From NCBI GenBank assembly GCA_028280605.1, contig JANQLL010000164.1, positions 99-64,098 on the forward strand: a DNA stretch of 64,000 bases, in the 5' to 3' direction. The DNA is from Candidatus Gastranaerophilales bacterium (GTDB lineage Bacteria > Cyanobacteriota > Vampirovibrionia > Gastranaerophilales > JANQFW01). Positions 19,282-45,599 of this stretch are shown here, one piece after another. Within the stretch, counting starts at the first letter, position 1, and each line of letters begins with the position of its first letter. A program made the translations under genes and the position numbers. The notes beneath the pieces are model-generated. The model worked only from the letters and a program-made list of their open reading frames with translations, was not told the origin of the DNA and searched no databases.

Positions 19282-19659
19282 TGTATTTCTCCAGGAGCCA
19301 AATTAGCTCTTTGTTCTGTTCAAGTTTAAGAGAATCATATTAATTAAATTACTTTATTCAAAAAAATTAAAACCTCAATAAGGTAATATAAAAGTTTAAT
19401 TAAAGAGTAAATTTTTTTAAATATTAATAGTTGCAACTGATAACTCTGAATCTAGTTGAATCTTTGCTTCTCTGTAGTCTTTCTGCAGATTTAAAAATTT
19501 TTCCATTTGTTAATTACGGCTATATAAAATATTAGTAATTAGTTTATAAAAAAAATAAAAAATTCTTGAACAAAAAAATAACTAAATTATTCGTCTATAA
19601 CAGACAATAGGGGCATAGAAATTTTATTAGTTTTTTCTAAAATCGATTTAATATACTCC

Positions 19660-19740
19660 CTCTAAAATACTTTTCAGATTATTAAATCGAGTTAAAGTTA
19701 ATAAAATAAACTATTCTCTGAAAAGAGTAATCTGAAATTC
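19660..19740 (+). repeat. Copy A of a ~60-80 bp hairpin-forming intergenic repeat, 33 nt upstream of the hydrogenase operon
   Basis: CTCTAAAATACTTTTCAGATTATT...CTATTCTCTGAAAAGAGTAATCTGAAATTC. CTTTTCAGA is complementary to TCTGAAAAG. 69/79 identical (hand count, ungapped) to copy B on the opposite strand. Confidence 0.8.
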
Positions 19741-19773
19741 AATTGATGAGCAGTATAAACAAAAGGAAAAACT

Positions 19774-20238
19774 ATGCAAAAAGCTGAAGCCAATATAAAT
19801 AAGATAATTGAAAAATATCACCACTCACATACAGATCTTTTGCCTATCTTGGAAGAAATTGTCGAATTAAACGGCTATCTTACTGAGGAAATGATGAGAG
19901 ATACTGCTAAAAAATTATCAATGAGCCCTAATGAAGTTTATGCAGTGGCTACGTTTTATTCATTTATTAATATCAAACCTACAGGCAGGTATGTTATTAG
20001 AGTTTGCAAAACTATAAGCTGTCAACTTTCTGACAAAAATGAAATAATTAAAGCTATTAAGGATGAATTAAACATAAAAGTAGGTTTAACCACAAAAGAT
20101 AAGTTATTTACCCTAAACACAACTGATTGCATTGGCATGTGTGATAAAGGACCTTCTATGCTTATTAATGATGAGGTTTATCATAGTTTAAATCCTGAAA
20201 AAGTCGTTTCTATAATTAGGGAATATAAAAACTTATGA
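19774..20238 (+). CDS. NuoE/HydC-like [2Fe-2S] thioredoxin-fold subunit of an NAD(P)H-linked hydrogenase
   Basis: 154 aa. Cys pattern VCKTISC...TDCIGMCDKGP typical of the NuoE 24-kDa family. First gene of the hyd operon. Confidence 0.8.
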   Translation: MQKAEANINKIIEKYHHSHTDLLPILEEIVELNGYLTEEMMRDTAKKLSMSPNEVYAVATFYSFINIKPTGRYVIRVCKTISCQLSDKNEIIKAIKDELNIKVGLTTKDKLFTLNTTDCIGMCDKGPSMLINDEVYHSLNPEKVVSIIREYKNL

Positions 20239-25976: not shown

Positions 25977-26864
25977 TTATGTTAAACGCCCTTTAGGCTT
26001 ATAAGTATTGACAGTATTGCTCATTTGTTTACAGCGACCGCTTATAGGTTTAGTCTTGCTAGCATGATTATTATAAACATCGTCTTTGGAAACACCAAGC
26101 TCTCGTAAATATAAAGCAGAAACTACACCAGTTCGGTCTTTTCCTGATTTACAGTGCACGTAAGCTCTTTTTTCATTATTTCTTACATCTTTCATTACAT
26201 TAAAGAATTTATCAATCTGCTCTTCTTCAGCTGTGCCTACAGGGCTAATAGGTATATGAACAAATTTAATCTTTAATTCATCAGCTATTTCTTTCTCTAT
26301 ATTGATATCTTCCTGAAATTCTGTGAGTGGGACCAGAAAATCTTTAAATTTTTCTCCTTCAATTCTACCGCCTGGGCATTGTAAACTTATTACTGTATCT
26401 ATTCCTAAGTTTTCCTTTAAGTACGTCATTCTATTGCGTGTTTCATTTTTCATATCACCTATAACTTCTTCAATTGAATTTTTCCCGTCAGGAATCTTAC
26501 CCTTATGGAATACCTGATAACTTCTGTTTCCGTCCTCATTATTTCTATCTGGAAGTTGCTTGGACGGGTCAAGGAAGAATGGACCTCTTACAAGATAGAC
26601 ATTTTTTTCATTTTTTGGAGCTACTGTATCTAAATTTATAAAATTTTTACCTAAATCTTCTCTTGCTTTTGTAAGAATTTCATCTGTGATTTGCTTTTCT
26701 ATACCTTTAAAAGCCAAAGGCTTGTAAAAAGGAGGATTAAAGCGTATATTATTTTGACTATTTGATTTTTGCCCTATAGATTCTTTATTTTTTGATGATA
26801 AAGCAGCATTGGTATTGTTAATCTTTTTTGGTGTAAGACCTTGAAAGGTAATTGAACTTAGCAT
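25977..26864 (-). CDS. Cys-based (CX5R) protein-tyrosine / phosphoinositide phosphatase-like protein
   Basis: 295 aa. P-loop VHCKSGKDRTG (HCxxGxxRT/G). Asn/Ser-rich N-terminal ~60 aa with no signal peptide. Confidence 0.7.
   Translation of the reverse strand: MLSSITFQGLTPKKINNTNAALSSKNKESIGQKSNSQNNIRFNPPFYKPLAFKGIEKQITDEILTKAREDLGKNFINLDTVAPKNEKNVYLVRGPFFLDPSKQLPDRNNEDGNRSYQVFHKGKIPDGKNSIEEVIGDMKNETRNRMTYLKENLGIDTVISLQCPGGRIEGEKFKDFLVPLTEFQEDINIEKEIADELKIKFVHIPISPVGTAEEEQIDKFFNVMKDVRNNEKRAYVHCKSGKDRTGVVSALYLRELGVSKDDVYNNHASKTKPISGRCKQMSNTVNTYKPKGRLT
25999..26028. repeat. Right copy of the 30-bp direct repeat, inside the last codons of the phosphatase gene
   Basis: See 25215-25244. On the minus strand this copy encodes ..QMSNTVNTYKP.., while the left copy would encode ..QVSNTVKTYNP.. 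Confidence 0.8.
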
Positions 26865-26944
26865 TGAATTTTGACTCCCTATTTTTTTGTTTTATATATT
26901 ACTCTCTACTTTTATTTATACTTATTATACAGGTTCTCAATTAA

Positions 26945-27023
26945 ATTTTAGATTACTCTTTTCAGAGTATAGGCTATTTCATTAGATTTAACACGATTGA
27001 ATAATCTGAAAAGTATTTTTGAG
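26945..27023 (-). repeat. Copy B of the hairpin-forming intergenic repeat (minus orientation), 80 nt upstream of the phosphatase start
   Basis: The reverse complement reads CTCAAAAATACTTTTCAGATTATTCAATCG...CTATACTCTGAAAAGAGTAATCTAAAAT. 69/79 identical to copy A. Confidence 0.8.
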
Positions 27024-27240
27024 TTAGTATAAAAAAATAATATAAAGATAAGTACAATAAAATTAAGTTTGAATAAAATAAAAATAAATATCAAATTTGT
27101 AAAAGTTAACAAAAAGTAAATATTTAAAAAGTTTTTTAGAGATAATATGCCATAAGTTTTTGACGTTATGGGGAATAAAATATGCATAAAAAAAACGCTA
27201 TAAATATAATAGCCAAAACCTGTAAGGATAAAATTAATAA

Positions 27241-44211: not shown

Positions 44212-44431
44212 ATCATTTTATCCTTTAAATTTTTTTAATATTTCTTGAAAAGTAGCTTTTTAAATATTGTTTATTTACAAATAAAATATTATAATAGTTT
44301 TAATAGTTTAAAATTATCTTAAATTTAAGTGAACTTTGAATAATTTTAAATAACCCTTTTGATTAATATATAGATTTAAGAATTATCTTATTTTTATAAT
44401 TCCAATTTGCCCTAGTGAGCTAGTACATTAA

Positions 44432-44490
44432 ATCTAAAGTACTTTTTCAGATTATTATATCTAATAATAAAAACTATACTCTGAAAAGAC
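44432..44490 (+). repeat. Copy C (shorter) of the hairpin-forming intergenic repeat, 173 nt upstream of the first HD-GYP gene
   Basis: ATCTAAAGTACTTTTTCAGATTATTATATCTAATAATAAAAACTATACTCTGAAAAGAC. Shares both conserved arms with copies A and B, with a shorter loop. Confidence 0.7.
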
Positions 44491-44663
44491 AAATACCAAA
44501 ATAAATTAAATGAGTAGTCTAAAAACAGTTAATCATATAAATTCTGTATTTCTACTTAATTTTTACAGTTATCCTTTGAATATGTTCAACAGTTGTAGTA
44601 AAATTATTTATAAAATATATTAATAGCGCACCTCAGGAATAGAAAATATCAGGAGATTTTTTG

Positions 44664-45599
44664 ATGAGACGAGTGATGCCCCTTGAGTTAGTAGGTTTAA
44701 AAAAATTAGATTATGATTTATATGATGAAAGCGGCGAATTGATCTATACAAAAGGTGAAAGTATTACTCCTGAGTTCTTAATGGCACTAAATTTTAAAAA
44801 GATTTATAAACTTGACGAAGGTTTTTCTTTAGATTTTACTGAAATAAAATCTCTTGATAAATATTATCACCAAAATCAAATAACTATAATTTCTGAAAAA
44901 ATAGCCGTGGATTCTTTAAACCTTACCAGATCAGCATTGAAACAGGCTTATGACGGAAAAGTTGTTAGCAGAATAAACTGTGTAAAGGCCAGTCAGCTAA
45001 TATACAATGAAGTAGTAAAAAAAATTAATAAAATCAGTTGTATTTCAGAGTTAAGAATACACGATGATTACTTATTTTCTCATTCAGTTAATGTTGCATC
45101 ATTGAGTATTGCACTTGGCATAGCATTAGATCTTAATGAGAGTGAACTGAAAGAATTAGCAATTGCGGCATTTTTGCACGACATAGGTAAGATGAAAATT
45201 CCACTGGAAATTTTAAATAAACCTGGCATTCTTGCTCCTGATGAATTTAACATCATAAAAGATCATTCATTGTATGGATATGAAATGGTTTTAGAAATGG
45301 GCGAATCTGAAAAAGTTGCAAAAGTAGCCTTAGAGCACCAAGAAAGAAATAATGGCGAAGGTTATCCATTTAAACTAAAAGGTGATGATATTTCTTTATA
45401 TGGTCAAATTGTTGCTGTAACTGATGTATATGATGCTCTTGTTTCTGATAGAGTTTATAAAAAAGCGGTTGATTCTTCTGATGCTCTTCGAATAATGATG
45501 TTGGAAGGAGATAAATCGTTTAATCCTAAAATATTAAATTCTTTTGTGTACTTTGTAGTGGTACAAAATTCAAAACAAAACGTTGGTAATATAGATTAG
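44664..45599 (+). CDS. HD-GYP domain protein (putative c-di-GMP phosphodiesterase), paralog 1
   Basis: HSVNVASL, FLHDIGKMKIP, LEHQERNNGEGYP, VTDVYDALVSDRVYK. ATG 44664 preferred (AGGAG RBS 8 nt upstream; matches the paralog N-terminus MRRV..LELVG). Confidence 0.82.
   Translation: MRRVMPLELVGLKKLDYDLYDESGELIYTKGESITPEFLMALNFKKIYKLDEGFSLDFTEIKSLDKYYHQNQITIISEKIAVDSLNLTRSALKQAYDGKVVSRINCVKASQLIYNEVVKKINKISCISELRIHDDYLFSHSVNVASLSIALGIALDLNESELKELAIAAFLHDIGKMKIPLEILNKPGILAPDEFNIIKDHSLYGYEMVLEMGESEKVAKVALEHQERNNGEGYPFKLKGDDISLYGQIVAVTDVYDALVSDRVYKKAVDSSDALRIMMLEGDKSFNPKILNSFVYFVVVQNSKQNVGNID

Follow-up and report, generated by a model that had tools for sequence, protein, structure and literature searches.

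Bacterial MITEs, the miniature transposable elements with inverted repeats, are A+T-rich, non-coding sequences of under 200 bp with terminal inverted repeats, 5′-TA-3′ termini and a target duplication, and the RNA transcribed from them forms long hairpins (PMC2229807, PMC10969869). The element described here is very probably a non-autonomous, TA-targeting MITE of the Correia, RUP and ERIC kind. It occurs in three copies (A, B and C) in a 64,000-nt stretch of DNA from a Candidatus Gastranaerophilales bacterium (contig JANQLL010000164.1; hereafter the window), upstream of a hydrogenase operon, a phosphatase gene and an HD-GYP gene, respectively. It represents an undescribed family within a familiar class of elements and not a regulatory RNA that links hydrogenase and cyclic di-GMP (c-di-GMP) genes. 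Gastranaerophilales are non-photosynthetic relatives of cyanobacteria.

The Correia elements of Neisseria (CREE/NEMIS) resemble this family in their length of about 100–155 bp, their AT-rich and non-coding sequence, their terminal inverted repeats and their TA target duplication (PMC2229807, PMC10969869). They likewise come in a short and a long form, with an internal module of ~50 bp making the difference (~107 and ~155 bp there, ~106 and ~165 bp here; PMC2229807). Their copy number exceeds 100 per genome, most copies lie a short distance upstream of genes, and no transposase has been identified for them (PMC2229807, PMC10969869). The two families share no sequence similarity and reside in different phyla, and the promoters, the IHF site and the RNase III processing of Correia elements have been shown by experiment, whereas the element here is known from sequence alone. 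Correia termini read TATAG...CTATA and those of the present element TATAC...GTATA, both being of the TATA type.

The RUP element of pneumococcus is comparable in its length (107 bp), its terminal inverted repeats, its insertion at TA and the high identity among its intergenic copies, which number about 108, and it also inserts into other mobile repeats (PMC2229807). The ends of RUP match those of a resident insertion sequence (IS) of the IS630 family, IS630-Spn1, which mobilises it; no matching IS was found for the element here, and again there is no sequence similarity. ERIC, or IRU (RU-1), of enterobacteria is likewise intergenic and MITE-like, with a length of ~127 bp and TA at its termini; it is transcribed with neighbouring genes as a long hairpin, and how it affects mRNA stability depends on the way it points (PMC2229807). 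It differs in having short terminal repeats (7 bp contiguous) and a less AT-rich sequence, and its orientation effect is experimental, whereas the one considered below is inferred from a bias in counts. Finally, MITEs such as Nezha are abundant in cyanobacteria (PMC10969869), hosts that are kin to the Gastranaerophilales at phylum level. A literature search returned no mention of MITEs in Gastranaerophilales or Melainabacteria genomes.

A first-pass annotation of the window had drawn the element as a 60–80-bp feature situated 33, 80 and 173 nt before the downstream genes. Reading and alignment confirm the three copies where it placed them, and the 69/79 identities that it counted by hand for A against the reverse complement of B are exactly right. 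The full element, however, is ~106 bp long, and its true ends lie 16 nt (A), 61 nt (B) and about 140 nt (C) from the start codons. It is non-coding, with nearly all reading frames interrupted by stop codons, and its G+C content is 23%, compared with 31% for the window. The copies and the parts of copy A are as follows.

19652..19757, plus strand: copy A, 106 bp including the flanking TA on each side (nhmmer E = 1e-26)
19652..19685, plus strand: left terminal inverted repeat of copy A (TATACT..CTC..TTTCAGATTA)
19717..19725, plus strand: internal third TCTGAAAAG motif of copy A, which pairs with CTTTTCAGA at 19670-19678 in a 9-bp stem
19724..19757, plus strand: right terminal inverted repeat of copy A (TAATCTGAAA..GAG..AGTATA), containing the second right-hand half-site at 19726-19737
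26926..27031, minus strand: copy B, full-length (nhmmer E = 6e-27)
44424..44521, plus strand: copy C, degenerate, lacking 10 bp internally and diverged at its right end (nhmmer E = 9e-9)

These E values were obtained with an nhmmer profile made of copies in other genomes, and the similarity of A, B and C to that profile is far beyond chance. Across the whole element, A and the reverse complement of B are identical at 88/105 positions. All three copies share the core TAC(T)TTTTCAGATTATT ... CTAT(A/T)CTCTGAAAAGA, and exact matches to the 13-mer TTTTCAGATTATT and to the 11-mer CTCTGAAAAGA number three each in the 64 kb, always within copies A–C. Thirty-eight aligned full copies have sharp borders with the tips TATACT...AGTATA and yield the consensus layout TATACTAACTC(A/T)AAAATAC-TTTTCAGATTATTCAATCGTGTTAAAnCTAATAAAATAAnCTAnnCTCTGAAAAG-AGTAATCTGAAATTTAATTGA..(C/G)(A/T)GTATA. 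Nearly all full copies have TATA at the start and TATA at the end. The terminal inverted repeats are imperfect and span ~34 bp (in the consensus, 25/34 positions agree between the left 34 nt and the reverse-complemented right 34 nt), and both contain the TATACT tip, CTC and then TTTCAGATTA from position 21.

The MITE anatomy, with two terminal repeats and a third, internal copy of the motif, also accounts for the hairpin and its alternative pairing. The arms CTTTTCAGA and TCTGAAAAG are complementary, as the first-pass annotation had noted, and the second right half-site (AGTAATCTGAAA) offers a competing partner: the best predicted fold of A uses it (UUUCAGAUUAUU/AGUAAUCUGAAA), while those of B and C use the first (CUUUUCAGA/UCUGAAAAG). 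The 9-bp stem is the left repeat paired with the internal motif copy, and the second half-site is the right terminal repeat. With respect to neighbouring genes, Pfam bears out the downstream identities given earlier. Copy A is upstream of the ATG of the NuoE-like gene that is first in a NuoE-like/NuoF-like/[FeFe]-hydrogenase operon, copy B is upstream of the ATG of a PTP-like phosphatase gene (25977-26864, minus strand), and copy C is in the spacer between a TPR gene and the first of two HD-GYP genes.

The family is far larger than the three members first proposed. A scan of one genome per GTDB species (185,579 genomes) with the pattern TTTTCAGATTAN{17,47}CTCTGAAAAG gave at least 51 loci. About 40 of those listed come from two Candidatus Gastranaerophilales metagenome-assembled genomes (MAGs), PL23b_bin.96 (JANQHM01) and PL23b_bin.2 (JANQFW01), and nearly all of these have an identical spacing of 55 bp; the listed matches in other taxa have no resemblance to the element outside the pattern. 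In the pattern-scan loci and the window together (about 0.37 Mb), the nhmmer profile found 66 matches, and full copies are 62–97% identical to one another (median 79%). Plasmid and phage collections contained no blastn match to the element. Viral contigs gave three pattern matches, one with an nhmmer E of 0.014 (chance level) and two without a profile match. A metagenome scan with the pattern AAAATACN{50,75}RAAATTTAATT returned at least 120 loci, none of those listed with the element by nhmmer, and that pattern is too unspecific to bear on distribution.

Comparison with sister species reveals that copies are present at some orthologous sites and absent from others. Orthologous loci of two sister species, whose coding DNA is about 81% identical to that of the window, were retrieved via protein homologs. 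At site A, the window reads ...AAAATCGATTTAA-TA[TACT..AGTA]TA-AACAAAAGGAAAAACTATG, with the left flank ...GATTTAA and the element TACTCCC...GCAGTA. The empty site reads ...AAAATCGGATTGGTTAA-TA-CGGAAAAAAACAATATG in bin.96 (left flank ...GGTTAA) and ...AAAATTTATTTGATCAA-TA-TTAGGAAAAGAAATATG in bin.2 (left flank ...GATCAA); copy A is absent from both orthologous contigs (L054 and L056), in which the flanks are conserved. All three genomes have an upstream block in common (ACAGACAATAGGGGCATAGAAA...). Where the insertion is missing, as in the two sister species, this block is followed directly by the ribosome-binding site (RBS) and ATG, and in the window copy A separates it from the RBS of the hydrogenase operon.

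19600..19647, plus strand: native upstream block of the hydrogenase operon, outside the element (ACAGACAATAGGGGCATAGAAATTTTATT...TTTTCTAAAATCG), conserved in three species

To judge from this clean filled/empty pair, copy A is an insertion, and the site fits insertion at TA with duplication of TA. The 19600-19647 block itself probably serves as the operon's native promoter or operator.

The other two copies are also variable among relatives. Copy B is absent from the bin.2 phosphatase ortholog (L060), which has a 79-bp spacer in which homology resumes directly past the end of the element; in a closer relative (Logan contig L059) the copy is present and the contig breaks within it. Copy C occupies the sole variable segment of a TPR/HD-GYP spacer that is otherwise nearly invariant in three species. 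This segment is an unrelated sequence of ~50 bp in bin.96 and a 43-bp stretch in bin.2; the copy is not shared as such by L063 or L065, and the bin.2 stretch may be a remnant. Because it is the most decayed, copy C is probably the oldest of the three. Two other candidate empty-site pairs, L032/L045 and L005/L008, were rejected, as the relevant side is not syntenic.

The spacer around copy C is of separate interest. The parts at about 44262-44375 and 44545-44660 of the window are near-invariant in three species even though the HD-GYP protein is only 83–91% identical, and a promoter-like TTGAAT-17-TAAAAT lies at 44576-44604. The spacer may hold a conserved regulatory site or a small RNA.

Variants of the element behave as decaying, rearranging mobile DNA, in a manner typical of MITEs. 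Truncated half-copies are present, one locus (L048) carries a head-to-tail pair, one copy (L008) has a 16-bp internal duplication and another (L044) is split by a different, 93-bp repeat that belongs to a second MITE family. Five copies in bin.96 represent a long variant of ~165 bp in which a 58-bp palindromic module, never seen outside the element, is inserted within CTCTGAA|AAG. The stem of this module contains G-U pairs on the sense strand and a G-C to A-T exchange between copies.

L004 3176-3341: long-variant copy
L015 3361-3530, minus strand: long-variant copy
L016 435-601: long-variant copy
L017 6029-6190: long-variant copy
L056 1733-1898: long-variant copy

Copies also coincide with breaks in assemblies. 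Nine lie at true contig ends, the Logan contigs L001/L002, L057 and L059 each begin within a copy, and the public-assembly contigs that carry the NuoE-like gene all begin 44 bp before its ATG, inside copy A. A related case is a 1.6-kb contig assigned to a Bacteroidales bin (L023; JANQHR010000128.1, PL24a_bin.19), which begins inside a copy (2-99) that is nearly identical to copy A and lies 32 nt upstream of recA; this contig is probably a mis-binned Gastranaerophilales fragment.

The size of the element, its terminal repeats, its copy number, its filled/empty polymorphism and its TA ends all speak for a place in the MITE class; a miniature mobile element had been the alternative reading of the first-pass annotation, and it is the one that these features, together with the assembly breaks, bear out. 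The element has become numerous within the genomes of a small Candidatus Gastranaerophilales clade (Vampirovibrionia/Melainabacteria), and in the mechanism that we propose it would insert at TA in AT-rich intergenic DNA and duplicate this dinucleotide. By analogy with RUP and IS630-Spn1, the mobilising enzyme would be a DDE transposase from the IS630/Tc1-mariner group, which duplicates TA; the TA target is the one feature that agrees with such a source. The simplest reading of TTTCAGATTA and TAATCTGAAA in the terminal repeats and of the internal TCTGAAAAG is that they would be sites for a transposase acting in trans and not parts of a ligand- or protein-sensing RNA switch.

The first-pass annotation had instead favoured a dedicated cis-regulatory RNA, riboswitch-like and with mutually exclusive folds, or an operator, that would co-regulate the hydrogenase operon, the phosphatase gene and the HD-GYP genes and so join redox to c-di-GMP functions. 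The competing pairings on which it drew do exist, and each window copy does precede a co-oriented gene. All three copies, however, lie in divergent intergenic regions, so that co-orientation with some downstream gene is automatic whichever way the element points, and the description ‘upstream of and co-oriented’, while true of A–C, is uninformative. The element is missing from the orthologous hydrogenase and phosphatase leaders of the sister species. It precedes many unrelated housekeeping genes in the MAGs, including those for a PfkB kinase, DnaJ, GatB, AroC (chorismate synthase), RecA, Pgk, CarA, Maf, Hsp20 and a DEAD-box helicase and, by eye, argC, a flagellin region, ribosomal protein S5 and valS; there is no tie between the element and redox or c-di-GMP functions. 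Conservation of 80–97% extends over the full 106 bp, loops included, which points to recent copying and not to a conserved site.

Structure prediction likewise argues against a dedicated RNA. The sense strands of A, B and C fold better than dinucleotide shuffles (z of -3.3, -2.1 and -2.4), and the antisense strands do not. The only stem retained by RNAalifold across the 38 full copies is that of CTTTTCAGA and TCTGAAAAG, here 8 bp long (CUUUUCAG/CUGAAAAG), with a covariation term of -0.01 and 0 compensated pairs, in a test limited by the retrieval of most aligned copies with a pattern that fixes both arms; among the roughly 20 copies found by profile only, the arms have decayed without compensation. 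A search of the whole window at Rfam gathering thresholds gave 0 matches, and E-value mode over 19600-19800 gave two chance-level matches only (E of 3.5 and 9.3). A shared regulatory RNA or operator is already contradicted by these results, and we give it next to no credence. Three specific candidates were rejected: a transcription-factor operator, given conservation of the entire 106 bp with sharp borders before unrelated genes; a riboswitch or other structured cis-RNA, given the diverse genes, the empty orthologous leaders and the lack of covariation and of an Rfam family; and integron attC sites, given that copies are scattered among housekeeping genes, form no cassette arrays and are without RYYYAAC/GTTRRRY cores.

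Several observations nevertheless weigh against a simple, neutral MITE. Among 61 matches with an E of at most 1e-8, none interrupts a gene (in two cases that look like overlaps, the ORF start was over-extended), and the placement of the element among genes is strongly biased, with the caveat that the orientation counts depend on crude longest-ORF gene calls. For 40/49 copies (p = 9e-6), the element and the gene that lies 3′ of it have the same orientation. Tandem spacers, for which a 1:1 ratio is expected by chance, hold 22 co-oriented and 5 anti-oriented copies (p = 0.0015), and in 10/12 cases in divergent spacers the element lies closer to the gene that it points to. Overall it is nearer the downstream start in 25/34 (p = 0.009), and its 3′ end is often 3–60 nt from the start codon. 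Such a bias is unlike that of a neutral MITE, leaves room for a co-opted function and suggests orientation-dependent tolerance or use of copies. Of the two properties that the first-pass annotation had linked to a plain MITE, target duplication fits, but orientation relative to genes is not random.

Neither of the two causes that we propose for this bias gained support from the scans and the junction sequences. Around A, B and C, sigma-70-like promoter matches are no more frequent than in shuffles, and canonical terminators were not found; the junction hexamers TATAAT/TATAAA are equally frequent at the right and left ends, which are nearly symmetrical. A search of roughly 0.4 Mb of Gastranaerophilales DNA for an autonomous IS with matching ends, or its transposase, found none, and plasmid and phage collections yielded no such partner either; the mobilising enzyme and its family are inferred only. 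In the same loci no ORF is flanked by paired solitary ends, and long-variant right ends and small fragments were all that a search for such ends around a transposase turned up. The TA duplication is read from one clean filled/empty comparison across species with diverged flanks, and as TATA is palindromic, the copies by themselves do not distinguish a 2-bp duplication from none. Lastly, a few wobble-compatible substitutions (L017, L024) and the G-C to A-T exchange in the long-variant module would fit pairing of a sense-strand RNA.

These points leave some room for an element that is mobile in origin but of which a sizeable share of copies now acts as an orientation-dependent, putative promoter or leader module, which we regard as possible though rather doubtful. 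The promoter form would act outward at the right end through a putative CTGAAA-N16-TATAAT/TATAAA made with the TA junction; the leader form would be a 5′-leader hairpin that sets mRNA stability or translation, by analogy with what has been shown for Correia and ERIC. In either form, selection would keep sense copies beside start codons, as the 22 versus 5 and 40/49 counts and the typical 3–60-nt distance would have it, and it is the sense strand alone that folds better than shuffles. Transcription of a central fermentation operon must cross copy A or start in it, given the place of A between the operon's RBS and its native upstream block. Promoters are present in Correia elements, most of which lie a short distance upstream of genes (PMC10969869), and the effects of ERIC depend on orientation (PMC2229807). 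Arguing in the other direction are promoter-like matches at shuffled expectation, near-symmetrical ends with equal junction hexamers, the absence of compensatory changes, and the position of copy C, which lies upstream of conserved promoter-like blocks and not in a leader. An outward promoter built from the junction hexamers accordingly finds no backing in the sequence. In a stronger version, which strikes us as unlikely, the [FeFe]-hydrogenase operon would be one of at least a hundred housekeeping genes and operons whose sense copies share one hairpin or promoter as a domesticated, portable leader. Were it true, a single RNase, RNA-binding or DNA-binding protein could tune a large, evolutionarily fluid ‘mobile regulon’ in gut Melainabacteria, and the 22:5 bias would be the footprint of that selection.

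The bias could also follow the direction of replication and not that of genes, if the element were a single-stranded-DNA repeat of the REP/RAYT type or a palindrome associated with IS200/IS605 and its hairpin were the recognition signal. The element does form hairpins, neighbouring copies on a contig tend to share a direction (19 pairs versus 7, counted from profile matches; in L048, four minus-strand copies keep their orientation across a change of gene direction), and the GC skew in element orientation is positive in 37 cases versus 18. Long terminal inverted repeats with TA at both ends are, however, features of MITEs of DDE transposons and not of REP or IS200/IS605 ends; no conserved 4–5-nt target lies 5′ of the left end beyond A/T richness; and an element of 23% G+C is not a short G+C-rich palindrome. 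The skew, taken as a proxy for the replication strand, tracks orientation less closely (37:18) than gene direction does (40:9), and the coding strand confounds it. We consider this explanation very improbable.

For a MITE, the bias may be understood as purifying selection. Sense copies such as A would be transcribed within the 5′ leader of the downstream operon, as the position of A between the native upstream block and the RBS implies, and they would be tolerated or might provide an outward promoter or a stabilising 5′ hairpin. Antisense copies would be more harmful and more often purged; their RNA would carry the CUUUUCAGA/UCUGAAAAG hairpin followed directly by UAUUUUU, a terminator-like arrangement.

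For annotation, it follows that the hairpins before the hydrogenase, phosphatase and HD-GYP genes are to be masked as a repeat family and not modelled as a riboswitch or regulon, and no link from redox to c-di-GMP signalling can be drawn from them. The element and at least one further MITE family break short-read Gastranaerophilales assemblies, which helps explain the fragmentation of MAGs and why some contigs may be mis-binned. The family adds an undescribed MITE with Correia-like anatomy from a lineage that is uncultured and little studied. What sets it apart is the strong sense-orientation bias just upstream of start codons, which makes it a reasonable test case for the filtering or co-option of MITEs in 5′ leaders.

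Two further repeats were encountered in the sister species. The 93-bp repeat mentioned above (GGTGATGGTCATCACC...TGACCACTACC) is unrelated to the element and MITE-like, with inverted-repeat ends; it occurs in both sister MAGs, has no copy in the window, and in the sister species lies within the hydrogenase operon, between the nuoE-like, nuoF-like and hydA genes.

L056 3462-3556 and 4730-4808: copies of the 93-bp family
L054 4623-4703: copy of the 93-bp family
L017 6875-6967 and 7531-7621: copies of the 93-bp family
L044 7863-7940: copy of the 93-bp family

A third short repeat (AATAAAGGCTCATTTAYGGACTGC.ATGTTAAAGC...) recurs in bin.96 (L063 2083-2163, L044 5771-5835, L052 6371-6403 and L027 3876-3916), and one of its copies is an extra insertion in the TPR/HD-GYP spacer that is absent from the window. 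The first HD-GYP gene beyond this spacer (window 44661-45599, 312 aa) has a TTG start in the ORF list, and its orthologs are 311 and 304 aa long. An ATG lies one codon downstream of this TTG, and the real start is probably that ATG, at 44664.

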